DNA from: Negaprion brevirostris
Taxonomy: Eukaryota
Assembly (NCBI GenBank): GCA_030324005.1
Contig: JARDVH010000121.1
Coordinates: forward strand, 10,685,715-10,749,714
Direction: 5' to 3'
Length of the DNA: 64,000 bases
Numbering within the stretch: position 1 is the stretch's first letter; the number at the start of each line of letters is the position of its first letter. The translations under genes and the position numbers were made by a program. A model generated the notes under the pieces. It was given only the letters and a program-made list of their open reading frames with translations. It searched no databases and was not told the DNA's origin. Shown piece after piece: positions 3,505 to 55,546 of the stretch.

Positions 3505-3536
<32 letters not shown>

Positions 3537-15390: not shown

Positions 15391-15426
15391 AACTGCAAGA
15401 AGCAAACAAAAGTCTAGATGAAACAG
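15391..15426 (+). CDS. Micro-exon E4, 36 nt, ELQEANKSLDET
   Basis: ttcgttttgtccag|aactgcaagaagcaaacaaaagtctagatgaaacag|gtacct. Confidence 0.83.
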
Positions 15427-15889
15427 GTACCTAAATGAAAAAAAAATTAGTTAACGGTGAAGACTTTCTTTGTCTTTACATACACTTAGGTTTTATACCA
15501 GATGGTCATTTTGTTTTTGAAATAGACGTCATGGGTGGATAAATTGCTGTGCCTGCTCTCTCTTTATTCTTTGGAAAGTGCGTACATTTTGTACTAGACC
15601 TACGTTCTTGTGGGATAAGCAATCATGATCTATAAGCAAATATTCCANNNNNNNNNNNNNNNNNNNNNNNNNNNNGTTAACTTAACGATTCAACGCACAC
15701 CCTTGCTTTGAAGTAAATCCTCAACCGTCCTTTGAATATTTCAAATGGTCTGTCCCCATGTTATCTACCTCTGACAATCGCCATCGTGGAAGCAGTGCCT
15801 CATTTTCTACTTCCCCAAAAATATTTCGTTATTTTGCCACTGAAACAAATATTTTAAGCTAACCTTTTCTTTACAATATGGACTGTGAT

Positions 15890-16959
15890 TCCTTTCGTGC
15901 AAGGGGTTTGGAAGCAGCAGAGTTCGTCCACTGTGTCCAAGAGAGTACTTATTGAGTCAATATGCAGATATTCCAACACGGTAAGGGGTTATCTTAGAGC
16001 CTGTTCTGGGGAATGTGGGAGCATTTTTGGACGAGTAATCACAATTCTGTGAGATTCAAAATACTTATAGAAAAGGATAGAAGTATTCCCAGACTGAAAG
16101 TAGTAAACAGGGAGAAAGCAAACTGTAACAGTATTAGGAAAGAACTAAAGAATCGAGACTGGAGGCTGCTGCTTGAGGGTAAATCCACCTTCAATAGGTT
16201 GGAGTCTTTTGGAAGGCAGATGGTAACAATTCAGAACAAGTACGGCCCTGTAAAAAAAGGATAAAGATTGCACAATTTAGGAACTGTAGATGACAAGACG
16301 GATTGTGAGCTTTATGAAAAAGAAAAAGGGAGGCATACATGAATGTAAGGAAATTGAAAACGGATAACCCTCTTGAAGAATGCAAAGTTGGCAGGAAACA
16401 GTCTAACTACGGGCGTAAGAGGGCAAAATCAGTGGTGAAATGTAGTTGGCAGGCAGAGATAAGGAGAATTCCACGGCTTTTCATTTGTGTTTAAGAAAGA
16501 AGAGGGTAACTAAAAAAAAGGTGGTTCAACTCAAGGACAGTGGAGGGAATCTGAGTGTGGAGCCAGGTGAGGTGGGTTAGATCATTAATGATTACTTCGC
16601 ATCGGTATTCAGAAAGGAGAAGGATGTAGCGGATGGTGAGTGTAGGGAGGAAGATGTTGATGTTCTAGGACATAGTGGAATTAAATGGGTACTGGAGGTT
16701 TTGAAAAACATTAAGGTCGCCCCTAGGGCCAGATAGGGTCTATCACACAAAACTGATATAGTTGATGAAGAAATTGTTGAGGCCTTGGTCAACTTTTTCA
16801 CATCCTCTTTAGCAACGGGCGAGATACCAGAAGACTGGAAACTGGCAAATAGTGTTCCTCTATTTAAGAATGGCAGAAGAGACAATCCGGAAAATTACAG
16901 TCCTGAGACCCTTATGTCAGTAATGGGGAGTTGTTGTTTTTGAGAGTTTTTAGGGGACT
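15890..16959 (+). mobile_element. Decayed CR1-clade LINE ORF2 fragment (end of endonuclease to pre-RT region), ending at a gap
   Basis: Remnant peptides EHF.TSNHNSVRF, LN.YFASVF, GEIPEDWKLANSVPLFK.G.RDNP.NY. Confidence 0.85.
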
Positions 16960-17058
16960 NNNNNNNNNNNNNNNNNNNNNNNNNNNNNNNNNNNNNNNNN
17001 NNNNNNNNNNNNNNNNNNNNNNNNNNNNNNNNNNNNNNNNNNNNNNNNNNNNNNNNNN

Positions 17059-19300
17059 NGGCTGAGAACAGGCCCAGTAGCCTTATGGTTATTGTACTAG
17101 GAAGACATGTAATCAATTCGCCTGAGGGAGGGTGGAAGATGATGCTAAACAACAGAAAAGAACCTTGTGTAGCATCCATGGGCAATGGATGTTCGAGCAG
17201 TTAAGAGAGAACCTCGACCAGGTTAGCATAGTTCTGTCCTGGATCATGATGAACTGATTAAACACTTGTACCGGGGTAAAAGATACCCCAATTACGGCAA
17301 CTGACCAGGATCTGGTCTAACGATAGCTGCAGAGGAACCCCGGGGACCGCACGAGAAATGGTGTTGTGTATCCCAATAATATTAAAATATAAGTTTGGGT
17401 TGTGACTTTTTGAAACCAAAAATATAAGGATCATTAAAGCAGGGATGTGGGTGGGATATCAGGGGACACGACCATGTGTGGTTGAGAAAGGAGGAAAGCT
17501 CATCGAGAAATATGAACACACAGACAAATGGTCATGTGCCTATAAGCAGTGTTTGGCAATCAACATGTCCTGTGTGGATTCAGAAGAACCACTGACCAAA
17601 ATTGAACACTGGAAATTTGATATTTGGGAAGAGATGTCACCTTACGGGGGGAGGGAGAATATTCCATTTCAACTTCTCCAGACATTTACTGGTATGGGGT
17701 AGCCATAACAACAACCACACTGTCTTTTGCATTAAACCACACATACCCGCTAGGTTAGGATTAATTGAGATAGTAGGCATACACAGAAGAGAGAAAACAC
17801 TAATAAACTCGAGCGAGGAATTGAGACAATGCTTGAAAGAAGTGATACTGAGATAACACTCTACCCAACAAAGTTCAACAAATTCGGACACAATTGATCA
17901 TAGCACACAAGACCTTTGTCAAACTGGTGCAACAAACAGGGGAATTAAAAAAAGAATATTAGTAAAATTAGATGCACTGCATGGTGGGAGGACCTCTAGG
18001 ATTGAGGTTCAAATGTCCAAAGCCACCCATGGGTCCGCATTCTGTCACATCTGTCGTTAATAGGAGTCCTACTTATGGCAGTGTACCTAACCATCCTCAC
18101 GTTTAAATTTGCCCGATGGCAGAAGGAATTTCTGCAACACGTGGACTTGACAAGGGCCATCCGACATCAGAAAAGGCTCGACAATCAGGAATTTGCAGGA
18201 TGGCAGAAGGAATAGAAGGAATTTCTGGAAAACGTGGACTTGGCGAGAGCCATCCAACACAAGGAAAGGCTCTACAATCAAGAACTTTGATGCTCTTCCA
18301 TCTATATTGTAATATTTACAGTCATTTTTTATTCTGTACTGTTTGTTGATTTGTATATACCCTATTAATGTATTTTTTATTCTTATTTCACTTCATTTAA
18401 ATTTGTTGGTACTATTCTGGTTTAGGGATGATACAATCGACCCTGGATTCAGGATACTTGTTTGTTGAAATGATTTGGTAAGGATTGCGTGATCTAGCTC
18501 GCAGAGGCTCACTGGATGAAGAGGAGGGAGTGTGGTAATATAATCAGGGCCCAGGTTCAAGGCTGATTAAATTCAATATCCTAAATTAAAGAATTGGGCA
18601 TATTAACATCAAACACAGTCAAACCTCAGGAAGGCCAATTGTACAAATACACAAACGTGTCTCGGCCAATCCATCAATCACCCATCAAAGATCATTGCAC
18701 CCTATGGGGACCCAGCAGGAGATCGTAGCCCCCCATTGAAATGCAGTGGCCTATTGTTAGAAGCCCAAATCGCGACCAAACTTTCTGTCACTTGCAGTTC
18801 CTGCAGTTACCTTATCTGGCAATAGAATACATGTAAACAACACCATGGAGATGGACACCTGGGGCCTGGTCCCACTGTCCTGTCAGGCAGACATGAAGAA
18901 ATCCATTGGGCATTGGAACACCTTCCTGGCACCTCATTGGCTGCAAGCCAGAGAAGTTTCTGGAAAGGCAGGCAGGGGGATAAAGGTACACATTTCAGGC
19001 ACACCAGCAACGAAGGCTCGACGAGGGAGGTGACCTTGACCATCTGGAAAACTGACCAGACAAGGAAGGAAGGACAAAGCTGCCATGAAGACTCACCAGA
19101 TGATGGACCAGAGGGACTCAAAGAATCGGGCTGCAGTTTAACCAAACCATATATGCGAGCAGCATACTTCAATCGGGGGTATCCTTGTATTTTATGTGGG
19201 TAATTTAGAGTTAATAGTGATATTATTAATAAACTTATTGAACCTCTACTACTGTTTGTCCTTTGTCCATCTTGCAAATAAGGGCACCGCGGTAAAACTT
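17059..19300 (+). mobile_element. LTR retroelement/ERV-like relic: decayed internal region, polypurine tract and 3' LTR (about 18531-19300)
   Basis: PPT gaagaggagggag (18518-18530) directly before TGTGG; AATAAA at about 19228; Cys spacing of a decayed CX2CX4HX4C knuckle at 18043-18084. Confidence 0.6.
18115..18288 (+). repeat. Two-copy tandem repeat of about 85-90 bp inside the LTR element
   Basis: gatggcagaaggaat...acgtggacttg...gccatcc.aca...aaaggctc.acaatca.gaa occurs twice. Confidence 0.85.
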
Positions 19301-21821
19301 TGGAGTAAGCAAACTGGTTGAAACAGTCTGACAATTAATATGCACAACAGTGGGTCAGTGATTCTGGGGAGCAAGTGGGTAGTGAACGAGGGTTCTGTGA
19401 TTCTGGGAGCATTTGGGTAGAGAATGGGCAGCCTGGACACTGACTGTTGCTTGGCTAGAGGCAAGCAGCATTCCTTAAAAGTTCTGGGGATGCCTCAGAA
19501 CGGGCCTAAAAGTCGGATCAGAAACACTCCCAGTTTCAAGTTCACCCAGCATTCGAGTCAAAATTGTAAAATAGGGCCTGACATTGACTACACGTTAAAA
19601 AGCACCCATTGGCAATAAAACACTTTGCCAAATGACAAAGAAGACAATAATTTTGCACAGCTCTTGATAATTGTTATTCTGCATTATCCAAGATCGGGCC
19701 TGTACAATAAACGTACATTAAAACGTAATGCCATCCTGTCAGTGCTATTTTAAAGTAAAATGCCACACTCCATTTGACGTCTCATGTTAGGCTCAAAAAT
19801 AAGGACATTCAGTTACTTCCTTTCAGACACTCACGATAGCACAGCAATTGTGCAGTTGGAATGGAGAATTAGCCCCAATGAGTATATTATTTCCGTGGTG
19901 GCAGGGGGAGGGTCAGCATCAAAAACCAAAGTGAATCAATGGCAAGGCCTCGGCAGAGCGCATTCTTCCAACTTCAACGTATTAGCACCCGAATGGGAAG
20001 AGTAAAAATGGGGAGTGAAAATGGGCTTCTGGCATTTGAACATAACAATTCATCCGTTATGAAATCAGCTGCGAATTGTCCGTTCCCATCCCATATTCTC
20101 GAACGGATTAAAGGTTGTATATATTTGGTTGCACTTTCATCAATGGACTGAGACAAATGTCCGAACAATCCAACTCAATGACTAACAAAAAGCGAGAACA
20201 TTTAAACATAACAACTTAAAAATAACAAAACTGACCCATTATATCATTGCAGGAAGTATAATATCCATTTGCATCATGTCTAAACTGCACTTTAATGTTA
20301 ATTACTTCAATCTCACCGCATTTTGCTTAAGTTATCCTTCTCGGTATTGAAAACTTGTTGGTCTCCTAACAGCCGTAATATTCACGAGAACAGAGCTCCA
20401 ATGTGCTATTATTCTTTTATGTGACAAATTCGATCCTAAGTGTGTGCCTCCACAGATTAGCTGTAATATTGGGACCGTTCCTGTTTGCTTGATGAATCCA
20501 CCAGAGCAAGAGTTCTCTGTAGAAATCACACAAAAATTTTTGCCCTGTTGCCTGTTAAAAATCTTCGAGAGGATCACATCTTTCTTTCTGTTTGCATGCT
20601 AAATCATGTCATTTTACATGTTATCTACAACTGGAAGGATGCAGAAATCTGGGAACCTTACTCTGTGTACTTTAAGTGTCATTCTATTAATGACACTTAA
20701 TCAAGAAGTTGGGCAGGACGCATGGACTTTCCTCAGCAAAGTCATTGTGCAACATTTCCGAATGGACATCTAACACGTTGAGATCAGAACGAATGCGATG
20801 TTAGTTTTTTTTTGTCAATGGTGACTTACTGAGGAACGAACTTGAGCCTCTCAAAATCCTAGTCTCATGTTTATTTGGAAAATATATATATATTTCCATG
20901 TATGTTACATCTGTTCTGCAGTGATAATCGGGAATGTCCAGAAATTACGTGCCTTTTGCAAGAGTTGGGCCCACTAAACAAATCAATCGTTGTCAGGTTA
21001 CATAAAATTATTATACTTGCTGACACGCTTCGATTGGCTATTCCTAAATCTCTTGATTACAGCTCCGCAGACTGTTGGCAATGGCAACTCCAGATATATT
21101 CAAACGAAACTTAAAATTGATTTCAAAGAGTATCAACTAAGACATTCTAACAATAATGGGAGAAGGTTTACTGTGAATGATGAACTTAAATATCTAATTG
21201 GCTGAATATATTTAAAACGTATGTAATTAGATATTGGACAGTGCATTGTGTTAGTGAGAGAAGGTGAAGAGGAGGGCAAACATGACGTCTCAGCTTGTTC
21301 AAAGTCGGAACAGGATGGAACAGCCAAATGGCTGAGTACTAATATCAGTTTTAATCTTCAAACTTCATTTGTTTGTTCAGAAATGCATTGAAATCAATAC
21401 AATTCGTTTTCTGCATACGGATGCCCCAGGCAAGGAGACCCTATTGTCCATTGTCTATGTCCAAGTAAGCAAAATCTCATTTTTGTATCGCTGATCGTAC
21501 ATTGAATTCAATTCAATGAATTATCACTCCCGGATTGGGCGAACTTGAAGGTTTAAACAAGTTCACTTAGCTCTAGTTACTCGACAGACGAGAGGTGGTA
21601 GACNNNNNNNNNNNNNNNNNNNNNNNNNNNNNNNNNNNNNNNNNNNNNNNNNNNNNNNNNNTTCTTTGCTATTTTTACCATTACCAGTAATTAATTACTG
21701 TATTCACAGAAACATATCATCAGTGTACTTTACTCAATTTTATAGATTACTACTGCATCTTATGAATGTAACACTGCGATTTAGACGTAATATAACATCT
21801 CACTTTCCTATTTGAGCACAG

Positions 21822-21848
21822 AACAGAGCTTGGTTAAAAAAGAAAAAG
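21822..21848 (+). CDS. Micro-exon E5, 27 nt, EQSLVKKEK
   Basis: tttcctatttgagcacag|aacagagcttggttaaaaaagaaaaag|gtaaga. Confidence 0.88.
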
Positions 21849-23922
21849 GTAAGAACCTAAAAATTATACATAATTAGTCTTATGAAATATTCGTTTCCAA
21901 TTGCTTGAAAGATTAACATAAAACAGTTCTGAGGTTGCCAATTGTAGGATCTAAGAACGAAATTTGAGAAGTTAAACATTAATGCAGTTAACGGCTAAAT
22001 AATACCTTACAAGAGAAGGAAAAAACCGTGTTGATACGACTTCCTGGTGGCAGGTAGCGGAAGACAATGCCCTAAGCATGGATTAGGCCATTTCTGCAGA
22101 TTTCTGTGTTAGGAATTAGCTTGCTGCAAGCCAGAATCTAATTCCAAAGATTTTCAAGAATGCTGTCTTTGTTCAAATTCCAACGCAAAGGTGTTTTAAG
22201 GCATAGTTTTTTTATATTTCCTTTGAACGAATCTTTCAAACTTTTAGAAAGAATGCTTCTAGCTCTCATCAAAATAAAATAATCGTTTATGCACATATGA
22301 TTACTTAGTTCTCTAATTGTGACAAAAATGTGTTTGCAACATGCAATAAGTATGTTCGCAAGTGTTTGCTCCATCACCCGTCAGAGCAACGCTTTAAACG
22401 ATGGAAAATAACTCTTTAAACATCACGTTTTACACTGTTACATTAATTTACCAGATATAAGTACATATTCAAATATAACAATAGGGTGACAGACCAATAG
22501 GTGGGGGGTGGGGGGGAGGAGGTGGAGGCAGGTACACAGACAGAAAAAGTGACATATAGGCAGGCAGGTAGTCAGGAAGACNNNNNNNNNNNNNNNNNNN
22601 NNNNNNNNNNNNNNNNNNNNNNNNNNNNNNNNNNNNNNNNNNNNNNNNNNNNNNNNNNNNNNNNNNNNNNNNNNNNNNNNNNNNNNNNNNNNNNNNNNNN
22701 NNNNNNNNNNNNNNNNNNNNNNNNNGAATGAATGCTTCAGTGACCAAAAAAAAATCCATGATATTTGTTTCCTTATCAGTCATTCCTGACTTTCAATGAC
22801 TTTTGATCAATTAGTTGCACGATATACAAGCCAACAAGAGTATGGTTATAGGTAAGGGTGCCTCATAACATCGGATGCTCAGCCCAGAGTTCTAACAAAC
22901 ATTCTAATGGGTTCCCTTAAAGATTACTGTCTAATCGGACTAACTGGTGACATCATGTTTGGCCAGCTCATCTCTGCCAGACAGTGAATAAACCCTACTC
23001 AGGACATATGCTAAGTGTGCAATATATTCCTTCCAACCAAAACTTTATTCATAAATATTTCATATTTCAAATGTTCAAATAATTTCCCGAAATATGTCTT
23101 CATCCTAATTTTTTTTACTGTGATTACGTAGCAATTAACTGTTTTTTGGCCAAAGCGAATCCTTACAATCAATAATAATACTTTCGAAATATCAGCATAT
23201 GCAGCTTCCAATCATAATCACTCGTTTGATGAAGTATTACATCTGATGTGCGTCAATTTTTTCTTGTAGGCTCATAAGCGCATTTTAAAATCATTTTGCT
23301 GAATGTTGTCAGTTCTGTCAGTGCCGTAATATCTAATGTTTTAAATTCTTAACACTCTTTTAGGGATTCTATTTACACCATCAGTATTTAAAAGACCACT
23401 TATTATGTATGTTTTGTTCAGTCTTGTAACTTGAAATCTATAATCATTGAACCTNNNNNNNNNNAAGAATGAGGCATTTGCATCTCTAACTCTATCCATG
23501 TCTGAAAAATGTCCATTCACATAAAAATATCGATTTCACCGTCAACTCATTTCATCTGAGTTGCTGCAGATTGCCACTTCACATCAATCTGCTTGATTCT
23601 AGCAGCGTGCAAACTCCAACACGTTTCGTTCCGGGGCCGATATCAAAGCTTAAGGAAATTTCAGTGATCACTGAAAACGAGTACCAGAGTGTTGGGCCCC
23701 AATGCAGGCAGTTTTCCTTCAAGAGAAATGGAGTTAACCATTTGTAACATTCTATCATTGAGTGCAAAATCACACCCCATTGCCTTCTTGTGATTCACAG
23801 GTTTGCACATTGATGCAAGTCTTGTGTTCAATTCTTTTGGATCCACCCACAAATTTGGGATCTGTTGTAATTTTACCAACAATTTGAAAATTTATGAAGG
23901 ATTCTATTTTCTTTCATTACAG

Positions 23923-23958
23923 AATGCTCTGCCTTGAAAGACGCACTTACTGAAAAGA
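23923..23958 (+). CDS. Micro-exon E6, 36 nt, ECSALKDALTEK
   Basis: ttttctttcattacag|aatgctctgccttgaaagacgcacttactgaaaaga|gtgagc. Confidence 0.85.
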
Positions 23959-24181
23959 GTGAGCACCCAGAGAATACCGTGTGAAAATGCATACCTATAA
24001 TTGCTATCAATTCAGTGCAAAATACTCTGCAGTAGTTGTATGCAATTCCTTATCATAGAAATTTTAACACAATTAATTATTTAAACTACAGTTATTCAGC
24101 TGAATAAAACCTTCGAATATGACCAAAAATCAATCATTTAATTGCTACAATAATTGCTGTTGACCTTTCCCTCTCGGCCAG

Positions 24182-24208
24182 ATAATGCCTTATCTCAAAA
24201 AGAAAAAG
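24182..24208 (+). CDS. Micro-exon E7, 27 nt, NNALSQKEK
   Basis: cctttccctctcggccag|ataatgccttatctcaaaaagaaaaag|gtagga. Confidence 0.85.
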
Positions 24209-25607
24209 GTAGGAGTGGCACGACTTTTCAGCGATTGTTACTCTCTATCTAGTGTTGTAGTTCTATTAATGATACGCTCTCCCTGTTTCTGTTATGTGAC
24301 TTTTTATGATCCGTGTAATAATTTCTTTATTATTGGCTTTCTTTAAGTTTGCTTCTGAACAATTGTTGCTGTACATATTTACGGTTGTTTTATCTGTGCA
24401 AGCTTAATTTATTTTTGTCTTTCGCAGTTGTATATGTTGTATCATTGTATCATCGGTTGAATTCCCTGTGGTGTCCCTGAAATATTGAGCAACTCGGATG
24501 ATTTTGCAACATCATTCACAAAACATTTCATAGGGTGCTCTCCGAATAATTTGATAGTAAATTCTATCCAAGAGCCAACCAAGGAACAGTTGAAACTATG
24601 CAGGACAGAGTTATGCAGATCACGATATGATTGAATTTCACATAGTTTGAAGTAAGGCATTGTACATCAAAGTTTAGAATTTTAATTCTGAAAGAGGACA
24701 CAGCTGAGGACAGAAACGTACGAGTAGCTACAGTGACTTATCAAACATTTTAAGGAATAGACAAGCAAAGATGCAACTGCAAACATGTTAAGGAACACTA
24801 CAGAAAACTGAAAGCAGGTATTTCAGCATCAAATAAAAGAATCAAAGCTGCAGAAGCTACAATGCCGTGTGATATTAAAAATAGTAATCATTATGGTCGG
24901 ACGTTTAAGGAACAGACAAGGGGATGCTGTTTTCTCCGGCATAGAAGTTAGCCTTTAGATCTCCTTCCTTCTAAGAAAAACAATTAAATTAGAGGACTTG
25001 AAGAATTTAAGGCAAAGGTGAATAGTTAGTCGGTGTTTCTGAAGGTTAAAGTCAGATCAGAAATAAGCTAAGTGTTGCGACAGCCTCAGCAGCTGGGTGA
25101 ACTGCTGGTGATCCTAATTCGCGTGTTCATATATGCGGAAGCACAAATAAATAAATGCTTTAAACCGATTTGTGCTTATACAAAGGTACACTTGCATATA
25201 CATATTCTATTAAGAGAATACATAGAGCCAAATTTACACATACAAATAGATAGCTAAATTTGCCATTAGGACATATAGAGAATCAGAAAACAATAGACAA
25301 ATACCCTCTGATAATAGTTAGGTCGATGGGTGAATGGCTGGATGGGTAGACAGACGGACGGACAAGTAGACCATCTATACTGTCGATTATGTATAAATCT
25401 AGAGCTCCATAACAAGGTACTGAACAAATTAAAGAGTCCGTCTTGAACAGCGAATGCTGAATTTAGTTTGACGTTCCGGTGATGGGAATATGACTGGGGT
25501 GAGCTGTCAGTATTCGTCCAATTTAATAAATGGTGTACACGCAAACTCACGTTCAGTAGAGTATAAGATAAATATTCTTAACTATTGATTGAACACAACT
25601 ATTTTAG

Positions 25608-25634
25608 AACTCAAGAGATGTGCTGAACAAGGCT
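25608..25634 (+). CDS. Micro-exon E8, 27 nt, ELKRCAEQG
   Basis: caactattttag|aactcaagagatgtgctgaacaaggct|gtaagt. Confidence 0.78.
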
Positions 25635-25661
25635 GTAAGTAATAAAGTATCAGTTGCTTTA

Positions 25662-25855
25662 ACCAAAAGAAAAAAATGCGGGAAAGTCTGAGCAGGTCTG
25701 ACAGCTTCTGTAAGGAGAGAAAAGAGCTGACGTTTCGAGTCCAGATATCCCTTCAGCTTTGACGAAGTGTCATCTGACTCGAAACTTCAGCTCTTTTCTC
25801 TCCTTACAGTTGGTGCCAGATCTGCTGAGATTTTCCACCATTTTCTCGTTTGGTT
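25662..25855. repeat. Palindromic element with about 95-bp inverted arms, Penelope-terminal-repeat-derived
   Basis: Left arm ...ctgtaaggagagaaaagagctgacgtttcgagtccagat pairs with right arm atctgactcgaaacttcagctcttttctctccttacag...; a single arm recurs at about 54275-54372. Confidence 0.85.
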
Positions 25856-27979: not shown

Positions 27980-28006
27980 CATCCGAGCTGGAGGAAACGG
28001 AAAATG
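27980..28006 (+). CDS. Micro-exon E9, 27 nt, SSELEETEN
   Basis: gtgtttcgtccacag|catccgagctggaggaaacggaaaatg|gtaaag. Confidence 0.82.
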
Positions 28007-34742: not shown

Positions 34743-34794
34743 CTGTTTCTCTTTGCAATAATGTCATTACGTCAGGTTGCAACTTGTGTTACAT

Positions 34795-44360: not shown

Positions 44361-44387
44361 AATTCAAAATTCTTTTGCAAAACTGCA
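44361..44387 (+). CDS. Micro-exon E12, 27 nt, EFKILLQNC
   Basis: acctcttttttag|aattcaaaattcttttgcaaaactgca|gtaagt; positional counterpart of E8. Confidence 0.78.
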
Positions 44388-44614
44388 GTAAGTATAACAA
44401 TCGGAATAATCGTGACACTATCGGGACACTTTCTCCAACATTTTGTATATTGCCGATTTGTTGTTGAATTGAAACGTATGCTGCGGCAAAAAAAGTCAGT
44501 AAATGTGAATTTCTAGCAAAAGTGCTATAATAAGTTTTCAGCTGAGATCATTATTAATGTGAGATGGATGGATAGCGCGACTGATGAGTTGAGGTGAAGA
44601 AAAGTAGGATGCAC

Positions 44615-45176: not shown

Positions 45177-46659
45177 ACACGATTGTTGTGTTATTGAATT
45201 TGTTTGAATCTATTGGAATCCACTGAAAGGATAGTATTACCATCCAACCTCGTTATAAATGGTTCATGTGCAGTGATGAAAGAATTGCATTCAGACGATG
45301 GATGGCGTTCAGGGAACGGGTAGGACGCGAGGCACCGAACTTGCTACCATAAAGATCTGATTGGGCCAAAGGTGTGGTGCATATTCGGCAAACGGATGTA
45401 ATTGCACCATTGTGAAATGAAGTGCAAGTCATGTTGGTACGGTTCGAGAAGATAAGGGACAGAAATCCTATGCCGATCATAACCACTGCGATAGACCAGT
45501 TTGGAAAAGGAGCCACTACTTGCGCCAGAAATATTTTGCAATGCGTGAGATATAATGCAGATCAGTGAGGACAGAGAGCGCGCGTTCCCGACTGAGACTA
45601 TAAAGGATTAAGAAAAAAAAAAGTTGCATGTACTGGTCACTGTGGAATACAGAAAATCCTATCCGTATTTCATGGGTATTGAAATTCTAAGGTTGAAGGC
45701 AGCATACAACTTTTTTACAGACATGGATGAGTAAAATGGAGGACTTCATGAGAGGGTAGATGGCAGATGAAGGAAAGTTGAGTGATGTAGAAATAAGATG
45801 ACTGATTTCTAGTTTAAGTGAAGAAATATACACATAGACTGTGACTATTTGGAGGGCTAGAATATGGACAACGTGCATTGTTACTAGTACAAATGGTAGG
45901 ATGACCGTGGTTACAATTACGAAAATGTTGTTCTGGAAAGTGGCTCAATGTCGCTCTTTAGCTATTTTGATGGAATTATTGTTGCTCAAAGCCGGGATAA
46001 TGTAATCATTCAAATCAATGTCTCATTATAACATGTTTCTGGGAATTCAGCAAGCTTCATTAGCAAATTATGTATGAAACATATAGCAAATTCTAATATT
46101 GTAGAATCATTGCATTGTGTCATTTCTTATTGACTTGTGCAAGGAAGACGTATAGCTGGTATAATGCAGATGTTTAAGACAAAATAAACAACTAATTGGG
46201 TAGTTCTAACAGGGGAGATAAGCTTTAGTATTAGAGAAAGATCAAAACAAACGTTATGCATCTCAATGAATTTCTACTCATAACAAACACTGCCCCAATG
46301 TCAATTGGGCAAAGAGAAACTGGGATTAGAGTCATGTGTTAGTAACCAGCAAACGCATGTATGGGCAGTGCAATTTTCCTGTCAGCGTATCACGTCCCAA
46401 TGATATTTTTCATGAACATTTCAAATACAATTTGGCTGAAAAAACAACCGAGGTATATTAAAACACACAATTTATCTTTCATACCTAACCGAAACACATC
46501 AGTTTTAAGAAGATTAAAAGATGAGTGTGAGAATTTCAAGTGTTCTCTGAATGTACAGTGCTGCCACCAGTTGATAATAATCTTCTTAAGATTGGGATGT
46601 GAAAATGAACGAGGGACGAGAATAAAGAAGCATTTAAAAATTAACAGCATTTGGCCGAC

Positions 46660-47180
46660 CAAGCCTCATGGACCATTCATTATGATAAAATCAAATTACT
46701 GCGAATGCTAGAACATTTATCATGGCTGATTTTCTATCTCTATCTAAATCATAAGAAGTTCTCTCCCCTACAATATTTGCTGTCCACAAGTCTATCAATT
46801 CATTTTTTAAAAAATATTCAGTGATCTGAACTCCACAAAATGACTGACCGTAAGACATGGGTGTATGGCCTCTTTTAGTAGCTGTGAAGTTGATCTGCAC
46901 TGCGTGGAATTCAAGTTTATTACTTCTTAGATAAGGAGACAAAAACTGCACACGATACTTCAGGGCCCTGTAAAGCTGCAGCGAGATTGCCTTCCTCCTG
47001 TACACAAAGAAACTCTCAATGAAGCCCAATAATCCATTTGTCTTCCTAACTGCTTACTGTATCTGCCTGCTTCTTTTCGACTGGTGTGCAGGGGGACCCA
47101 TGTTCTTTTGTATATCAACAGTTCCCAATATATCACCACTTAAATAATGTTTGGCGATGCTCTTTTTCCCTTACACCTAT
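46660..47180 (-). mobile_element. Decayed CR1 3' fragment
   Basis: Minus-strand LQLYRAL..YRVQFLSPYLR remnant. Confidence 0.65.
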
Positions 47181-47777
47181 CTAATTTATGCAGCATTTGA
47201 CATGCACTTTCATGTGAAATGGACTCCGTCCCTAACAGCACTATGTGTGCACCTATACCTCAGTGTCCACAGCGGTTCGAGAAGGCATCTCACCACTACC
47301 TTCTAAGGGGTAACTAGTGATGGGCAATAAATGCTGGTAAATGAAATATAACTTAATATTTCCTCTTAACGAGGCTGGCCATCGGTGATTTCTGATGGAA
47401 ACGAATCTGTTTGTATTGTGTCATTCACAAAGGATTAATGTGTATTCATGCGTATTCAAGCTAGGTCGATGAGGCTGGGTACAGATTATTTGTAAAAACA
47501 TGTATTCACATGTGGGAATTTTAAATGATTTGAAAGATTTAATGATGGGGATGTCGGCCTGCAGTTACATAATCATCAGCGCCTCCCCCACCCTCTGGCC
47601 GCAGCTTACCAGCCATGGGGCAGAGAAAAAGATAAGCAGTGTTGAATGGCAATGAAAACGATGTGGTCTGTCGAAAAAGTGAAAACTAGCATCTAATTTT
47701 CTATTAAATCGAAATCGATGAGAGAGGGACCAGCACAGCACATGGGGCTCAAGAGTTCTCTTTCCGTTGTTTTGCAG

Positions 47778-47804
47778 AGGAAGACATAGAGGAAAAAGAA
47801 TCAG
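47778..47804 (+). CDS. Micro-exon E13, 27 nt, KEDIEEKES
   Basis: ttccgttgttttgcag|aggaagacatagaggaaaaagaatcag|gtaaat; counterpart of E9. Confidence 0.87.
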
Positions 47805-49088
47805 GTAAATGACAATAGCTAATTCCAATGCTCCTCAACCGTTTGGAAGAATGTGTGTGAAATCCCATTAACGGAAAAGATTGAAAGGAATGAGCAAACC
47901 AATCTTTCAGATCTTCTCTCTATCCAGTAAGTTAGTCCAAGACCGTTATTTACTGTTGCAATAACCCGTTAGACTGTTGGTATTATTACTATTGTAATAA
48001 TAATAGCTATGATTCTCATCATTACCATCATTCTTCTAGACTAACATTAGAATATCATATTACTGAGTAAAATTAAAATAGTTTACCAAGCAGAATTATT
48101 GTGATCTTTGTAAAAATCCTGAATTGTTCAGTAAAACAATATAACTGCTGAACTGTAGGTCTATCCTAGTTCTGTCCTGCAGGACAAAGACACAAAAAGT
48201 GGCTAAAATCCCATTTAGAATTTTAGCCATCGACATGAATACTCGATATTTCCGTATCGTGCCGTCAATTGAGATGTATATAACAGACATAGCGACTGGT
48301 TTGGTACACATTCATATATGCCCACATAGAAGTTCAGTCTTTAAGTGTTCGTGGTATCTCAGCTAATTTTGCCAAGAACATGAGGTTAGGACGCACTCCT
48401 CGAATAAATTCAAAGCTTCGATAACATTTTGGTTGGCGTGAAATTTGCGGCCAACAACTACTCTCTTATTTGCAATTCCTGCTGCACAATGTTGAGAGCG
48501 AAGCAAAATGGAAAGTTGATGCAGCAACCTGTAACCGAGGAAGTTGACATTGTTCCAAATGTCCTCACGGGTATTTGTTGCAGGATTCCAGTTAGAGGGG
48601 ACAACAGGTATTTCCATTCAAGATTCATCGCTGTGCTTGGAATAATAGCAATGCCATTCAGATAAATGCTTGATTCAGTCGTGAAGGAGCCGACATCTTG
48701 CAGATAGGCGTTACTTCAATGCGCAGTATGCCCTTGAAACTTGCAGTACAATTTCAGTGTGAAATTATTACATGCTAGAAAAAAAACTCTAGAAACGGAA
48801 ACATTCCACAGCGTCCGTCTCAGCATTATTGTCAGTAGTGCAATCCATTTTTAAAATAGCAGGTTAGTCGCTCGCCATCGCTGTACCTTCCTGTGAGTAA
48901 TCCATTTGTTTCAGCAGAACACTTTATAAATACTTGAAGTGTTTTGCAATTCCTATGAAGAGCCTTGATTGATAAATAAATTTGCAATGACAGAGAGTAC
49001 AAAAGATTGTCAATAAACTCGTTATTTTTAAGCATTGAAGATCAATGTGGTTGAATACCACATGTCCCTTATAATAGAGAATGAAGGC

Positions 49089-49272
49089 CAAAGATGTGCG
49101 GGTTAGGTTGATTGGCCATGCTAAAATTGTCCCTTAGTGTACTGAGATGCGTGGATTAGCACGAAAAGTATGTAGGGATATTGAGGCAGGGCCTGGGTAG
49201 GATTGTGGTCGGTGCAGATTCGATGGGCCAAATTGCCGCTTTCTGCAGTGCAGGGTTGCTATGATTTCTGTG
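49089..49272 (+). mobile_element. HE1/V-SINE-like SINE, 3' half
   Basis: ccaaagatgtgcgggttaggttgattggccatgctaaaattgtcccttagtgt... Confidence 0.85.
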
Positions 49273-52200
49273 AAGGCTACAGTGCATCGATAGGTTTACT
49301 TGGTAAAACCGAATGTCTTCTCGAAAATCCATCAATTAATTACCAATTTTTTTTCTATATAATTTACTAACTAATAGCGATAGAGAGAGAGTGTTATGTG
49401 CACTTGGATCCAAGATTCAGGATTCAGAAACGGATAGGTCAAGGAGCATTGCAGCCTACCTAACAACAGTTCGGATAGGCGTGCTGTTCGTTAGGCAGGA
49501 ATTAACAATGCCAGCTGAAATGGATGTTTAGAAACGGAAAACAGATTGCAAGCTTTTTTCATGTTAAATTCTATCGGCTTGACCGAAGCGGTGCAGACAG
49601 CATGTGATCAATGCATCATTACTCCTTGTGCTCTTCCAGAAAAATGCTAATACCCAACTAGTAAAAGTATTAGTAAGTAATTTGTCGCCAAGTATGGATG
49701 TCAGCGTGTGGGACAGTAGAGTTTTAGGTATTTGGCAGACTTTGAATTTTCAAGCATACTTTTCTTAGACTCCGCACCAGAGTGTTTTTTTTTCTTTTTG
49801 TATGAAATCTATTTCCTCTGATCAATCAGCAGCTAAAGTTCATATTTTATGCTTCTGTAAAGCGCAAACATATAGTGTGTATTTTAAAACAAACAAAAAA
49901 TTGAGGTGAATTGCACATGAAGATTCAATCTAATTGCAATAATACATTGCAGGACCTGTTCTCATTACAGAACAGAAAATGATTCTAAAACAGGAACCTG
50001 TAGAAATCCCGAATGACATGGCCATCAAACCAATATGAGCGTCGCTTAAAACAACCAGGCAACAACTTAACTATATAAGCTTTTCATGCAATTTTCGGTT
50101 CTCCGGGCACAATTCCAGCATTTATTATAACTTTCCAGAGGTGAGAGTATTGATTTGAGAAGAAGTTGTTACGCTGGAATAAACCAATCTTCCATGAAGG
50201 GCAGACATACAATTGTTTTGTTCAGAGCACAGCAGCAAAAGTAAAATGTGGTTGCACCTAACGCATGGTGAAAGACAGCATAAAATATCCATAGGAGAAT
50301 TTCAGAAATCACTAGCAAATTAAATGTAAATATTAATGGAATTTTGTTACCGTAACAATTTCTTGGAACGCGGTCGTGGAGGAAAATTTAAATTATGCTG
50401 TAAAGAACTTTCTCGACTTGTGTCTTCTGAGTCCAGCCAGAAACGTGACATTGCTGGACCTGTGTCGAGCGATAAAGCAGGGCAAATGGACTGAGTTAGT
50501 GCGTGTGAATGTTTGGTTAATTGCTATCATCGTACCATAAGGGTTTAATGCATGACGGAGAACAACAATGATAAAACTAAAGAAGAAATTTAAAACTAAA
50601 AGAGCGCTGTTTTCAGGGGGCTACAAGTGGACCTCACAAGAGTAAAGCAGAGGCAAATATGCTTCGGAAAATCTATTAACGAGGAATTGCCTTCGGAGAA
50701 GAATTTCTGTAGGAAGAATTTGGATAGATCCCTGCACGATCGAAAGTTTTGAAAAATAAATCCAGAATCAATAATTGGCGAGGGAGATAGAAACATAAAA
50801 AATAGGAGATGGAGGAGACCATTCTGTAACATTATCGAGTCGTGCACGTATGCAAAAAGTCCCTCTGTCCCATTAGCAATTTACGCTGTATGTTAGATCT
50901 TTTCGCCGTGTTCTTCCTATCAAATTGAGTCATTTCACACTTTGTTGAATTGAACCTCATTTACCAATACACCAAAATGACAATTTCAGTTAAAAAAAAA
51001 TCTCATAGTTCGCAATGCAGCCCTGATTCTCATTATCCGAAACTTGAAGTTGTGTCCTGTGCGCCAAAGTCTAAGTAATGAACATATTTCACAAATATCA
51101 TGCATCACCACACTCCGAGAGAAAGGCTTGCGAGAAAAAAAAAATCTGGTGGAAAAAACAACACGGTATGTCACTTTTAGAATGAATTAAGGAGAACAGG
51201 AACACGTTTATAAAAATGAGTTGTTTCCTGCGAATCAAAGGGGATCAGTGGATGAAGTCGTAGAAAATGTAAATGGACAGAAGTTGAACTTATATGATTT
51301 TAAGAAAAGCATTCAGCAAAATGAATTAAAAATGCGGTGTAAGAAAATTAAGGATCATAAATTTGGAAGGTCAATGTCAGCTTAAAACGAAAAACTAGCA
51401 CTTAAAGACACAATGCAAGGAACCATAATGAATGGTTAGTTTGTTCACATCATGTATCTATTCGTATGGTTGACAGTTTGTGTTTGATCGTGATTTAGTG
51501 TGTGCATAAGTGTGTGTGCATGCATGCATGCGCGTGCGCGCAGTTGTACATGTGATTTCCATATTGGGATACAGATTTTAAAAGCTGCATCAGTGTCCCG
51601 AAAATACCAATCTACATGACATGAACAGTTGGCAGAACTGACGGCTGAAATATAGCATAGATCTTCAGATCAATCAATTTGACAGACTTGATTGAAAGGG
51701 CAATATACATGAACGGAAAAGTCCTAAAATCTGTGCTTACAGAGGCTGAGTTGATGATATATATTCAGAGATCTTTGAAGTGGCAGCTATTATTGTGANN
51801 NNNNNNNNNNNNNNNNNNNNNNNNNNNNNNNNNNNNNNNNNNNNNNNNNNNNNNNNNNNNNNNNNNNNNNNNNNNNNNNNNNNNNNNNNNNNNNNNNNGC
51901 AGTCAGCAAATCATGTTGGCGATTTGGCTGCACAGAGGAATTGAATGCCAAAGCTAGAAATTTATGGTGAAATTTTCTGCACAGAATTAGCCCAGAATTA
52001 AACGATTGGATCCAGACTTGGTCACTCTGGAAATGCACGAATGTTCCTCTGAAGAGACTTCTGATATTTTCCTAACAAAATTTGCTGCGTCATATTTATC
52101 AATGCTGAACTTCAGTGATCTTGCTCTGCCAAATTTGNNNNNNNNNNTATTTAACATCCCCCAGGAATTGTTTGCCACATTACACAGATTGACTATCCAT

Positions 52201-52544
52201 GCATTTACATATAGTCTTTTCATTTGCAAACTCCAACCAGTTATTGAAAGTTGTAAACACCCGTATTTCAAGCACTAAACGTAGTGGAGTACCTCTCCCC
52301 CATGTGGTCCTCTGAACAGTTAATTCCTGCCCCATTCTGTCTGGCTTGAAGCCAGTTAGCAACTTGCATTGCCTTTTTCCTCGTAAACCCACGTGGTCAG
52401 AATTTCGATCACATAAATTAACGTTGTTTGAAAATACTCCTGCTTAGACTCTCGTTGTCAAAGGGGTTTTGGATAATATGGACCATCTTCCATTCATTGG
52501 GACCGCCTGCGGAAATCAACGAGATGTCAACAAATTATTGAGTT

Positions 52545-52845
52545 CCTTCAATGCAGAAGGAAGATGTATCATCGAGCCCACCCACCCTGTCTCTCCAACA
52601 GAACATCCAGCCAAGATCCAATCCCGCCTTATCCCCATTACTCACGTATGTACCATTCTAATCACTGTAATCTGTGCACCTTGGACACGAAGACCCAACT
52701 TAGCATGGCCACTGGACCTAACCTGCACATCTTTGGACTTTGGGCAGAAATCAGGGCACCCGGAGGATATCCATGCCGGCATGGAGCGAAAGTGCAAACT
52801 CCAGACAGTCAGCCACTTAGGACGGAGCTGAACCGCCGTATGGAA
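52545..52845 (-). mobile_element. Diverged HE1/V-SINE-like SINE
   Basis: cctaacctgcacatctttggactttgggcagaaatcagggcacccggagg. Confidence 0.75.
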
Positions 52846-52859
52846 GCAATTCCATCTGC

Positions 52860-53400
52860 GGTGGAATTGTTACGAGTGTGAAGAACGTTGAAGATCAGGA
52901 CCTCAGACCCAGCAGATGGCTCTTGATCGACAGAGCAGTGGTGGTGCATGCCTTTCTGCAGGACTCGGGTATATCTGCAAAGCACAAAACGCACTCAAAA
53001 CCCTCGAGAAGCAGTACCAGCGCATTCTTCCCAAGGTCAGGAATGTCTATGTACAGAATCGGCGTACTTATTCCGGTTTTTCACTGAGGCCAGCATCCCC
53101 AGCACTGTGGTATTGACAATGCTCAATCAGCTCTGCTAGACATGACAAATCGTTCGCATGCTTCACACAGAACTATCACAGTTGTTACCCGTCTCAGAGC
53201 TTTTGGAGGGTAAATGAGCTGAAAGAAGATAGCAGAAAAACTTCAAGGATACATTCAACTCCCCTTGAAATTGTGCAACATCACAACAGGCACCCGTGAA
53301 TTCGAGTTCCAAGACCATCTACGCTGAAGGAAAAGCAATGAGAAAGAAACCGAGTACTTCATGTTTCATTGCCTAAAACGCCTAAATGACATGCGCGCCT
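52860..53400 (+). mobile_element. Decayed RTE-clade LINE C-terminal fragment
   Basis: LKTLEKQYQRILPK, EASIPSTVVLTMLNQLC and IVRM remnants, typical of the RTE post-RT region. Confidence 0.6.
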
Positions 53401-54234
53401 GCGGGAATCCCAAGTACCTTTTCCTCCGACTATCGGCTTATCTGCGATCGAGAAGGTAGGCTTCGTGCTTGACTCCTCCTTCACCTGAGAATTCATTTTC
53501 ATTGTGGAAAGTCATTCTCGACTTCAAGAGACTGTCTAAGGAAGGGAAAAAGAATCATAGCCGAGTCTCCCTGAAGCAGCATTCAATATGCATGTTTTAT
53601 TATAATGTTCATAATGTTCATTCCAGCTGGAACATCTCTATTTTAATAGCTTACAATAACAGGAGGTTCCCGCAATGATTTTTTTCTTGTACGCATTGGA
53701 GTTGTTTGGATACATGCTACGAGGTTGTCCCCTTTTTCTAGGCAGTCTGTAACTGGCGTCATAGTCTTACACAAAGTTTCTAGCTATTGAATGCTGGAAC
53801 ACGGACAACGTTATTTGCCTGGTGAGTTGTTGCCCCTTCGGAATTCTCCACACAACAGGATTTTGTACTATCTGGCTGTGAAAGAACGACAGATTTCTAT
53901 GTGCTTAAACTATTTAAGTAAATTCGTGATTATGCCGATTTACGCCTAAAGATCACTCTTGGCCGTCTTCAATGATGGATCAGTAACGAAAAGTTGGTTG
54001 TTACGCTTTATTCCGTTGTTCATTTTTTGTTTGTTTGTTTTCGTATTTGTTACCCTCTTATTTGCTTACGATAAACAATCGCGAGGATTATTGATTTTAT
54101 TATTGAAACATGTGGTCATTCGGTCCCATTGTCACAGTGCTGGCTTTCTGAATGAGCCAATCATTTCAAACCACTCCAATTTCTACTCACATTGGACGAA
54201 ATCTCCTTCCTTTTCAGATATAAAGCCAATTGTC

Positions 54235-54660
54235 ACAGATAAACGCAAAATGCTACGGATGCTGGAAAATAAGAGAAAAACAGAAAAATGGTGGAAAATC
54301 TCAGCAGGTCTGCCAGCATCTTTGGAGAGAGAGTAGAGCCAACCTTTTGAGTCTAGAAATGACCCTTCGTCACAGCTGAGAAGAAAGAGAGTCAGCAGAG
54401 CTTTATACAATGTGATTAGGGAGGGGTGTTGGAATTGCACAAAGTGAATATAAATGAGCATGTAGAATGCTGATAAGGTGTTTAAAGTTTCCATTAAGTG
54501 ATCAGAATGGGTTAATGGCAAAACAAAGTTGCAGCTTGGTAATGGACTCTCTATGTAGTATGGTACTTAACCTGAAGAAGGGACGTAGGATGGAAAGAAG
54601 GAGGGTGATAAAATGGAGAATGGGATCAAATGTAAAGTAATCCAATTACCATTTGAATAA
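54235..54660 (-). mobile_element. Penelope-derived fragment sharing an arm with the 25662-25855 palindrome
   Basis: aaaatggtggaaaatctcagcaggtctgccagcatc...gagtctagaaatgacccttcgtca. Confidence 0.65.
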
Positions 54661-55141
54661 ATCGAGTGAACCAAACTTCACCGCGACATTTTTGGAAGAC
54701 ATTTGACCTATTCAACCCTTCACTGCGTGGAAGTTTTTTATTCACATGTCTGCATTGCTGATTTGGTAATTAAATTACACCTGCACACCTTTGTTTTCGA
54801 TTCTTCCACTGGTGGTACAGGACAGTACAGTCGAGCAGTGATTGGCATTGTTGCTTTAGGGCGCCAGGGACCCGCGTTCAATTCTGCCTTCAGCAACTGT
54901 ATGGATTTTGAATGTTGTCGCAGTGAATCTCCTCCTGATGATTCCGTTCTCACTGTAACTTTCCTCCGGATGCTCGTGTCTTCTATAGTCCAAAGGTATA
55001 CGAACTGGCTGGATTAGCCATGCTAAACTGCCTTTCAGCGTCCGAAAATTGTAGATTAGGGGATTTAGCTTTGGATAAAATCTGAGTAGAGCTGTATTGA
55101 AGGGTCTGTGCAGATTCAAAGGACTAAATGGCCCCTCCTTT

Positions 55142-55143
<2 letters not shown>

Positions 55144-55188
<45 letters not shown>

Positions 55189-55210
55189 ATATATATATTT
55201 ATATATACAT
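55144..55210. repeat. (TG)n followed by (TA)n microsatellite
   Basis: Seen directly. Confidence 0.95.
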
Positions 55211-55510
55211 ACCCCCACGCCCTTCCCTCATTGATATTTTTGCATTTGCATCTTCATTTTCTGATGAGACTGCTGTGTGGATATTTCATCACGTGCTATT
55301 ATTTAACTATTGGTTAAACGTTCACGAGTAGTGTAATACCCCCAGTATGACCAGTTCCTTTAGGCCACAAATCATGTTGGCGCTGTCATCATGTTATTCG
55401 GAAGTTCGCTTTTCAATATGCATGGCTTGCTTACTTGAATTTCCTTACTTTGTCCAATTATGCTTTTTTTCTTGTATTTCAAAGTGGTGTCACCCATGTT
55501 TCGTTTTCAG

Positions 55511-55546
55511 AGCTGGAAGCTTTGCAGAAGAAAATTAATGAGTTAG
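55511..55546 (+). CDS. Micro-exon E14, 36 nt, ELEALQKKINEL
   Basis: tgtttcgttttcag|agctggaagctttgcagaagaaaattaatgagttag|gtgagt. Confidence 0.9.
   Translation, partial: SWKLCRRKLMS

Follow-up and report, generated by a model that had tools for sequence, protein, structure and literature searches.

Two alternating types of microexon in an approximately 540-kb gene of Negaprion brevirostris, predicted to encode a long coiled-coil rod with a terminal B30.2 domain

The window analysed here, a stretch of 64,000 nucleotides from Negaprion brevirostris (contig JARDVH010000121.1, C121 below), lies over its whole length (1..64000, + strand) in the middle of a microexon gene of approximately 540 kb, gene B, which is located at about 10,414,700-10,952,300 of the contig and contains approximately 127 phase-1 microexons followed by an intact B30.2 exon. 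Beyond the window, gene B continues for about 270 kb on the 5' side and for 200 kb on the 3' side, where it terminates in a B30.2 domain. The terminal B30.2/PRY-SPRY exon (L041:2064-2584, + strand) is located 202 kb past the window end, matches SPRY with an E-value of 1.7e-15, and has BTN3A1 as its best match among solved structures (E 1.5e-24). The preliminary description of this DNA had not named the nature of the gene, that is, its extent beyond the window and its terminal B30.2. Gene B is one of six such genes across 4.7 Mb; genes A and B are arranged head to tail on the same strand, and genes C and A are head-to-head, with their outermost microexon candidates 9.2 kb apart.

The candidate phase-1 microexons of the window are all on the + strand. 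Exons of 36 nt, here called X, were found by the trained model at 4693..4728 (score 16.2), 9147..9182 (17.6), 15391..15426, 23923..23958 (last base A, donor gtgag), 31611..31646, 55511..55546 (28.7) and 60163..60198. Exons of 27 nt, found by the same model and called Y on the basis of gene-A profiles, are located at 6297..6323, 12479..12505, 21822..21848, 24182..24208 and 42518..42544, the class A of the preliminary description, at 27980..28006 and 47778..47804, its class C, and at 63655..63681. All five class-A exons exist as described, but two of them (6297 and 12479) are upstream of the range 15391..55546 in which they had been placed. Two 27-nt short-X exons, the former class B, were added by hand: 25608..25634, the most diverged member and the only gene B exon with a terminal T, and 44361..44387, whose last base is A. 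Against the class-blind threshold of 4.7, the latter scored 4.1 and the former failed, below the listed band. Both contain Cys, as had been noted, but not as one shared residue, the Cys being at position 5 in 25608 and at position 9 in 44361. Skipping of exon 27980..28006 would join a T to AG and create a stop codon. The catalogue of the window is completed by an 18-nt phase-1 exon found by the trained model, an irregular module (56328..56345), and by a weakly X-like 27-nt exon added by hand on its splice score (57474..57500), while an uncertain 39-nt candidate with a proline (53171..53209; score 4.2 vs the threshold of 4.7) was excluded and, if real, would disrupt the X-Y alternation. The exon order that had been proposed (36,27/36,27,27,27/36,27,27,27/36) holds, with all 11 segments AG...GT-flanked, in phase 1-1 and on the + strand, and the flanks quoted for them (acceptor ttttag and donor gtaagta for B, donors gtaaagacaa and gtaaatgacaa for C) are exact.

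The signal for such exons was well above that of the opposite strand. A fixed filter returned 98 rows on the + strand vs 10 on the - strand in 464 kb, overlapping lengths being counted as rows, and the trained model returned 225 exons vs 9 at the same threshold in 1.07 Mb. The catalogue of gene B includes 14 exons added by hand, four were removed by hand, and broken exons were left out by design. Runs of N are present in seven of the ten introns between 15391 and 55546 and could conceal exons; none of nine intron frames matched Pfam. The sequencing run X1 covered the introns evenly and behaved like DNA, and is evidence on expression in neither direction.

These segments are likely exons of one gene and represent two alternating types of phase-1 unit, not the four classes (36, A, B and C) distinguished earlier, because A and C belong together and B is a 36-nt exon in shortened form. 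The X exons are hydrophobic at positions 2, 5, 9 and 12 and the Y exons at position 4. When profiles trained only on the neighbouring paralogue, gene A, were applied to gene B, the A and C exons of the window were assigned to Y and both B exons to X, of which class B is a 27-nt short form. Exons in B position were X-like in 10 of 13 cases (6 of 9 among those found by the class-blind model). Gene B has 73 exons of 27 nt, 47 of 36 nt and 7 of other lengths; its final catalogue contains no 21-nt exon, two doubtful 21-nt matches having been dropped from it, and five 21-nt candidates are found in the 5' part of gene A. Alternation was seen at 98 of the 119 joints of gene B, whereas 20,000 shuffles that kept the length pattern averaged 72 and never exceeded 91. 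The other 21 joints do not alternate, and a relaxed search of 17 X-X gaps filled almost none of them. We regard this two-type exon grammar as highly probable.

The grammar is matched by the geometry of a coiled coil. The helical arithmetic put forward earlier, in which 12+9 = 21 residues make three heptads and 9+9 = 18 residues a heptad plus a hendecad, is sound: X plus Y keeps the heptad phase, and short X plus Y adds one stutter (3-4-4-3-4), which is predicted to shift the twist of the rod slightly. Over the window from 4693 to 55546 the core spacing follows 3,4,3,4 and is interrupted only by two 4,4 steps, each of them in a B-C pair. When the 127 exons of gene B are joined, they give 1,276 residues with no stop and three prolines, with a hydrophobic period (spectral peak) of 3.51, and of 3.52 for the window from 4693 to 55546. 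The heptad periodicity runs on across the exon joints and was much weaker after the exon order was shuffled, the spectral power of the joined frame being 62 vs at most 32 in 60 shuffles. The architecture of gene B is predicted, with little doubt, to be a long coiled-coil rod with a B30.2 domain at its end.

It had also been proposed that the gene grew by duplication of multi-exon blocks. Such duplication was seen directly in gene A, where collinear intron matches of 65-77%, up to 2.9 kb, span exons and neighbouring exons resemble each other (r 0.26, p 0.001), but its trace in gene B is weak. Over the whole of gene B, neighbouring exons showed no excess similarity (r 0.006, p 0.45) and, of three Mantel tests, two did not reach significance, whereas the identities of X and short-X exons were correlated over seven gene B blocks (rho 0.82, p 0.002). 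The introns of the window have indeed lost their similarity, since self-comparison gave 51 matches, none linking two exons.

The preliminary description went further and had four classes copied as (36+27) and (36+27+27+27) blocks, each class inheriting its own intron flanks. Class B is real as a family, with seven members within 131 kb, and is coherent in several respects: Cys occupies position 9 in 5 of 13 exons in B position and in none of 60 others, the donor gtaagta is found in 5 of 13 vs 4 of 114, and TA at +6+7 in 5 of 8 gtaag donors in B position vs 4 of 32 (p 0.008). Furthermore, gtaaa donors are in excess at the C position (4 of 8 vs 13 of 119, p 0.011), clustering of nine window exons separated A from B (p 0.005), and seven 36-27-27 runs are found within about 140 kb. 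However, two of these runs are without a fourth exon in the catalogue, and class C was not recovered as a cluster, its members scoring as Y and one of them grouping with A. The flanks alone did not recover the classes either (10-nt flanks, p 0.14; 100-nt flanks, p 0.095), and the ttttag acceptor was not enriched in B (3 of 13 vs 10 of 114, p 0.13). Class-specific flank signal is limited to donor positions +3..+7, with none at -40..-7 (p 0.64) or at +8..+40 (p 0.22); at +41..+100 a class difference of 0.004 was seen (p 0.023, one of five tests). Much of this donor signal has a simpler source, because +4A+5G is found in 18 of 19 exons without a terminal G, whatever their class, vs 103 of 216 with one, so that most of the B donor is due to the exon not ending in G. 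Compensation between -1G and +5G is known (PMC11732430) and has been reported to reach +7/+8 (PMC8283771), and the class-specific donor pattern largely follows from it. The four-class version is improbable as a whole.

Relatives of gene B are found in other cartilaginous fishes. Orthologues of its terminal B30.2 were found at 72%, 65% and 53%, and the database models XP_042192744 (chimaera, 1,697 aa), XP_038671249 (catshark, 945 aa), XP_069797411 (ray) and GCC29430 (bamboo shark) belong to the same B30.2 group as the shark gene and, where long enough, have the same module pattern, but they are automatic predictions with generic names, and all except that of the chimaera are shorter than the gene B frame. 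In an unconstrained parse, the catshark model contained X-y-x-y-X runs and alternated at 40 of 46 joints, and the ray orthologue alternated at all 6 of its joints, compared with about 0.45 in shuffles and 1/4, 0/0 and 2/7 in TRIM-type coiled coils; the chimaera model is less regular (27/46 and 17/24). A single-sequence structure prediction for the catshark protein has helix throughout its X-y-x-y runs, which is weak evidence given its mean pLDDT of 55 and unfolded B30.2. Among isoform pairs in the relatives, 5 of 7 differ by exactly 9 residues; since dropping just one 9-residue exon would put the helix out of register, X-Y pairing is not absolute. When the B30.2 exon by itself was the query, the proteins retrieved were all distant and mostly TRIM-like, at no more than 36%. 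In a B30.2 tree with midpoint rooting only, 22 rows of the microexon family, picked by family-profile score, were separated from 19 BTN, TRIM and other rows (4 BTN, 15 other) by a branch with 100/100 support. One 'zinc-binding protein A33-like' entry in a shark skin-mucus table (PMC10707392) was set aside as evidence. The ESM Atlas has long SPRY-only clusters (1,579 aa, score 0.91), which are no more than a lead.

Most of the relatives' database models are short (129-460 aa), which would also be expected if the array were a decaying relic in which most microexons are unspliced and only short 3' transcripts are made. In line with that, pN/pS is about 0.8 in eight duplicated pairs of gene A (31 vs 8 changes), so constraint on the rod sequence is weak, and the omission of broken exons from the catalogue could favour an appearance of integrity. 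Yet splice sites and frame are kept in 127 exons whose introns can no longer be aligned, the B30.2 exon remains intact, some database models reach 945 and 1,697 aa, and the pattern is common to catshark and ray. Decay is consequently a very unlikely explanation.

The 5' end of gene B bears on the place of the protein in the cell. Its first exon was not found in the 53 kb between the B30.2 of gene A and the first gene B microexon, a region interrupted by N runs as long as 3.3 kb, and first-exon searches of genes A, B, C and the 8.8 Mb gene gave candidates, none of them conserved between genes. No first exon between A and B, together with their head-to-tail order on one strand and exons that are all in phase 1-1 and joinable, would fit a single transcription unit of approximately 1.5 Mb in which either of two terminal B30.2 exons could be used, giving a shorter and a much longer rod. 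On the other hand, the 5' exons of gene B resemble by eye the 5'-type modules of genes A, C and the 8.8 Mb gene, as expected of a separately duplicated gene, and the gap before the first microexon, of 53 kb in gene B and about 63 kb in the 8.8 Mb gene, is well accounted for by a promoter plus a first intron. We consider a joint unit to be improbable, to the same degree as the four-class version.

A secreted or membrane-anchored protein, with a signal or anchor exon and either a collectin-like stalk bearing an extracellular B30.2 or a butyrophilin-like tail, is rather unlikely, but less so than a joint A-B unit. It is suggested by the skate model XP_055510696 and the chimaera model XP_042192744, both of which begin with a hydrophobic stretch, and the N runs in the 5' 53 kb of gene B leave room for such an exon. 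However, the skate stretch ends at a would-be acceptor, and the T-rich acceptors here read as in-frame hydrophobic starts, so these starts may be annotation artefacts; a signal peptide based on the two models was set aside as possible acceptor read-through. The 5' searches of gene B gave no convincing hydrophobic (signal or transmembrane) exon. Between 2.2 and 11 Mb of C121, outside the N runs, there was no match of butyrophilin-type IgV or IgC: neither a shark BTN IgV nor PF22705 had one, compared with at least 34 and at least 24 matches elsewhere, respectively, and neither Ig nor a clear signal exon was seen in the 9.2 kb between genes C and A. RING and B-box were absent by eye from the + strand frames of at least 70 codons in the gene B 5' region, and from all seven family models scanned, which may be 5'-truncated.

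Parts of this organization are known from other systems. According to PMC5043582, PMC5938342 and PMC4046983, the chicken BG (B-G) genes and the soluble 'zipper protein' also have a coiled-coil tail encoded by many tiny exons with a split first codon, and BG likewise has a heptad register kept across exon joints, exon skipping, a tandem multigene cluster and multi-exon repeats, of three exons in BG0 and four in BG1, the latter of which expands and contracts. Repeat units with copy-number change correspond here to the collinear duplications of gene A and the weaker trace in gene B. The BG exons, in the same sources, are of 21 nt (some 18 or 24), number 13-37 per gene, and follow an IgV and a transmembrane exon, with no B30.2. 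In contrast, gene B spreads about 127 exons, of 27 or 36 nt and of two alternating types, over 540 kb and has a terminal B30.2; the 21-nt heptad tail without B30.2 and the single IgV plus transmembrane exon that are hallmarks of BG were not found in it, there being no Ig match and no anchor found. Butyrophilins such as BTN3A1 share with gene B heptad repeats followed by a terminal B30.2, but have Ig domains, a membrane anchor and no more than a few heptads (PMC4046983). The shark's own BTN-type Ig exons are mainly on contig C84, and the B30.2 of the microexon family is on a separate branch from BTN. The PRY-SPRY TRIM proteins, from which the database names TRIM39-like, TRIM58, TRIM69-like and zinc-binding protein A33-like are taken, share a coiled coil followed by B30.2; unlike the microexon family, their coiled coils give no X-Y module parse. 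Our literature search found no description of a microexon-B30.2 gene family.

The explanation that we prefer as a whole, with a probability of roughly 0.7, is that the alternating X and Y exons of the approximately 540-kb gene encode a long coiled-coil rod with a B30.2 end, likely two-chain and in the cell interior, spacing a pair of binding heads. The array may have grown by unequal crossing-over of even-numbered blocks of exons, X-Y pairing being held by selection on the helical register, while introns eroded and splice signals were retained. Less well supported is the form of the product: at the coiled-coil rise of 0.15 nm per residue, a parallel dimer would be about 190 nm long and could carry a B30.2 recognition head as its spacer or scaffold, in the manner of a butyrophilin or BG tail that is far longer and has no anchor. 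That it is a cytosolic dimeric scaffold is a tentative proposal, somewhat short of even odds.

More tentatively still, these genes may form an undescribed family of cartilaginous fishes that predates the shark-chimaera split, made up of giant genes (0.5-1 Mb and well over 100 exons each, six in 4.7 Mb) in which the exon type would directly specify coiled-coil geometry, duplication or paired skipping would tune the length and twist of a 200-nm-scale rod, and the B30.2 would serve as a sensor in a protein devoid of Ig, membrane and RING parts. Since chicken BG genes already have repeated exon blocks in a coiled-coil tail, the principle is not new; what is new is the scale and the two-type code, with about 127 microexons over 540 kb and an exon type that sets helical register and stutter places. 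The six genes are a multi-megabase B30.2 gene cluster whose annotation in related species consists mostly of short, generically named models. They offer a natural series for asking whether selection keeps register, and not sequence, through exon duplication, and a case for how the spliceosome copes with more than 100 consecutive exons of 27-36 nt.

All eleven segments that the preliminary description had set out as a series of 36-nt and 27-nt exons were found on the + strand in the order stated, AG/GT-bounded and in phase 1-1, with the quoted intron flanks correct, although two exons of its class A (6297 and 12479; exons are named by their start in the window) fall upstream of the range that it gave. 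Beyond the window the same microexons run on for ~198 kb and cease ahead of an exon of 521 nt whose acceptor is in phase 1 and which contains a stop codon; this exon encodes a B30.2/PRY-SPRY domain (Pfam SPRY E 1.7e-15; best solved-structure match BTN3A1, E 1.5e-24). A neighbouring same-strand paralogue (gene A) terminates in a B30.2 exon of its own, 325 kb upstream of the window, and the gene crossing the window (gene B) therefore spans ~540 kb from its first detected microexon; its first exon was looked for and not found. A fixed filter over 464 kb returned 98 rows on the + strand versus 10 on the - strand, and a trained class-blind model over 1.07 Mb returned 225 + strand exons at a threshold that nine - strand exons also reach. 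Both class B exons of the window score below that threshold, and a 39-nt candidate at 53171 scores as high as one of them. The 225 matches, less 4 doubtful and plus 14 hand-added exons, form a catalogue of 127 putative microexons for gene B (73 are 27 nt long, 47 are 36 nt long and 7 are of other lengths) and 108 for the 475 kb model-scanned part of gene A. N runs are present in 7 of the 10 introns of the window series. Intron 15427-21821 holds, at 16000-19350, a decayed stretch that is LINE-like by eye, followed by 2.3 kb within which 74 nt are directly repeated (18121-18287); the frames tried from 16000-19350 gave no Pfam match.

The three classes into which the 27-nt exons had been divided reduce to two exon types. 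The 36-nt X exons (n=95) are hydrophobic at positions 2, 5, 9 and 12 in fractions of 0.84, 0.84, 0.91 and 0.68, and the 27-nt Y exons that come next after them (n=77) are hydrophobic at position 4 in 0.91. Class C resembles Y, and class B resembles X cut to its initial nine residues. When scored by profiles built from gene A alone, all A and C exons of the window (five and two) come out as Y and both B exons as X, so that the order 36,27,27,27 reads X, Y, short X, Y. Throughout gene B, 98 of 119 joints alternate; 20,000 shuffles that preserved the length pattern averaged 72 such joints and reached 91 at most. The other 21 could reflect exons that were overlooked, spurious exons or true breaks; of 17 X-X gaps, hardly any were filled by a search with relaxed criteria. 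Class B holds up as a sub-family; of its seven members (-86.5 kb to 44.4 kb), five carry Cys at position 9, and both window members contain Cys as claimed, but at different positions, 5 and 9. Position, flanks and X score place exon 25608 in this sub-family, of which it is the most diverged member (30-48% DNA identity to the others). It is the sole exon ending in T, and joining it to 95 of the 127 exons would give a stop codon; its next exon, 27980, gives none, which lends modest support to the 25608-27980 joint. Because skipping 27980 would join 25608 to 31611 and create a stop, the two exons are either tied together or their separation truncates the protein.

Joined in order, the 127 gene B exons would encode 1,276 residues with no stop and 3 prolines, and the hydrophobic period of this frame is 3.51 (power 62, versus at most 32 in 60 exon-order shuffles). 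With core positions set by exon type, several of them polar (Lys at Y7), the core spacing over window 4693-55546 is 3,4,3,4 throughout, plus two 4,4 steps, one per B-C pair. The arithmetic proposed earlier, with 21 residues as three heptads and 18 as a heptad and a hendecad, holds; the 18-residue unit amounts to a single stutter. Joints of the X-X, x-X (short X to X) and Y-Y kinds would yield core spacings of 2 or 6, which would give selection a reason to keep X-Y pairing.

Named relatives of the gene B-group B30.2 exon come from cartilaginous fishes only (72% identity in Scyliorhinus torazame, 65% in Chiloscyllium punctatum, 53% in Narcine), and B30.2 paralogues were found in catshark, skate, basking shark and chimaera. 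When database protein models, which are automatic predictions, were parsed into modules without constraint, 40 of 46 joints alternated in catshark XP_038671249, X-y-x-y-X runs included, as did 6/6 in a ray orthologue, 3/3, 5/7 and 7/10 in three other models, and 27/46 and 17/24 in chimaera; three TRIM-type controls gave 1/4, 0/0 and 2/7. Isoform pairs among these automatic models differ by exactly 9 residues in five of seven cases, by 18 at the start in one and by 6 in one; skipping a single exon would shift the register, and X-Y pairing is therefore not absolute. Folded from its sequence alone, the catshark protein is modelled as helical along the X-y-x-y runs, with low confidence (pLDDT 55, B30.2 unfolded).

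Growth by duplication of multi-exon blocks, as proposed for the window, is borne out for the family, and for the window itself it is only traced. In gene A, nine exon pairs show 69-89% identity over 175-835 bases, flanks included, collinear matches of up to 2.9 kb extend across exons, and the likeness of two exons extends to their neighbours (r 0.26, p 0.001). For gene B as a whole the same neighbour test is null (p 0.45), with a marginal result near the window (p 0.042), and no intron similarity is left in gene B beyond about 30 bases, as had been expected of old duplications. Among seven gene B blocks the identities of X and short X correlate (rho 0.82, p 0.002); the two remaining comparisons show no correlation (p 0.24, 0.11). 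Near the 5' end of gene B, at 268 kb and 248.6 kb before the window (stretches L074 and L076), two pairs of 27-nt exons similar in sequence each enclose a very short intron (103 and 113 nt), likely the product of an old block duplication. In gene A, about 353-355 kb upstream of the window (L065), a 456-nt inverted duplication of 95% identity carries a complete microexon copy on the opposite strand.

The claim of class-specific intron flanks fared less well: flanks alone fail to recover the classes of the nine window exons. Similarity within classes exceeds that between classes at donor +3..+7 (p 0.0003), is marginal at acceptor -6..-3 (p 0.057) and is absent at -40..-7 and +8..+40. Most of the class B donor pattern follows from the last exon base, which is not G in 8 of 13 B-position exons; across genes A and B, 18 of 19 exons not ending in G have +4A+5G regardless of class, the known 5'/3' compensation. 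Such compensation is described in PMC11732430, and its reach out to +7/+8 in PMC8283771. Some donor likeness may be left from shared descent, as suggested by TA at +6+7 in 5/8 versus 4/32 gtaag donors. The ttttag acceptor attributed to class B is not enriched (p 0.13); tttag occurs in 5/13 versus 13/114 (p 0.02).

On the window's contig, JARDVH010000121.1 (C121), where the window occupies 10,685,715-10,749,714, six related B30.2 exons are spread from 6.2 to 10.95 Mb; another contig, C84, has one more. A genome pattern search with one exon type gave 32 matches versus 6 for a control, 18 of them in that C121 interval and always on the strand of the next B30.2 exon. Further family-type microexon patterns occur at C84:84.7-93.5 Mb, where they and the family B30.2 exon sit in the company of numerous other B30.2 exons and BTN-type Ig exons, and on several small contigs, so that the family occupies at least two large contigs. 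Gene A would span ~950 kb (C121:9,409,140-10,361,200, stretches L163 to L068) if all + strand microexons belong to one gene. With 108 microexons catalogued in the final 475 kb, it may contain up to about 200; five candidates of 21 nt, the size of BG exons, lie in its 5' part (9.509-9.540 Mb). It lies head to head with a further family gene, gene C (- strand), their outermost microexon candidates being 9.2 kb apart (C121:9,399,912-9,409,140, L162 and L163); a candidate first exon between them at 9,408,034 combines a favourable start context with a gtaagt donor and lacks signal-like sequence. The B30.2 exons of gene A (L068, C121 ~10,361,018) and of the 8.31 Mb gene (L122) are interrupted by short N gaps, and the one in gene A therefore appears frameshifted. 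A Na,K-ATPase alpha subunit gene has exons at L060:3536-3802 (-) and nearby, ~190 kb beyond the B30.2 exon of gene B.

Butyrophilin-type IgV or IgC domains had no match on C121 between 2.2 and 11 Mb, and RING, B-box and Ig families of Pfam are absent from all seven family models scanned. In a midpoint-rooted tree with rows picked by profile score, a 100/100 branch splits 22 family B30.2 rows from 19 BTN, TRIM and other rows. A literature search aimed at the family gave no description among the matches listed, most subscription papers lying outside its reach. Already known are the tiny exons of BG genes, 13-37 per gene with three- and four-exon repeats (PMC5043582, PMC5938342 and PMC4046983); new here are the two-type exon code, the positions at which stutters fall and a test of whether flanks are class-specific. 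A rod and a B30.2 head are well supported, and we infer the dimer state, location and ligand of the rod protein. Most likely, the gene B product is a parallel two-chain coiled coil, which would be ~190 nm long and bear a pair of B30.2 heads. The nearest functional precedent is a soluble BG tail of chicken, the zipper protein, which regulates actin-myosin interaction (as described in PMC4046983); the rod would act like a butyrophilin or BG tail, unanchored and much longer.
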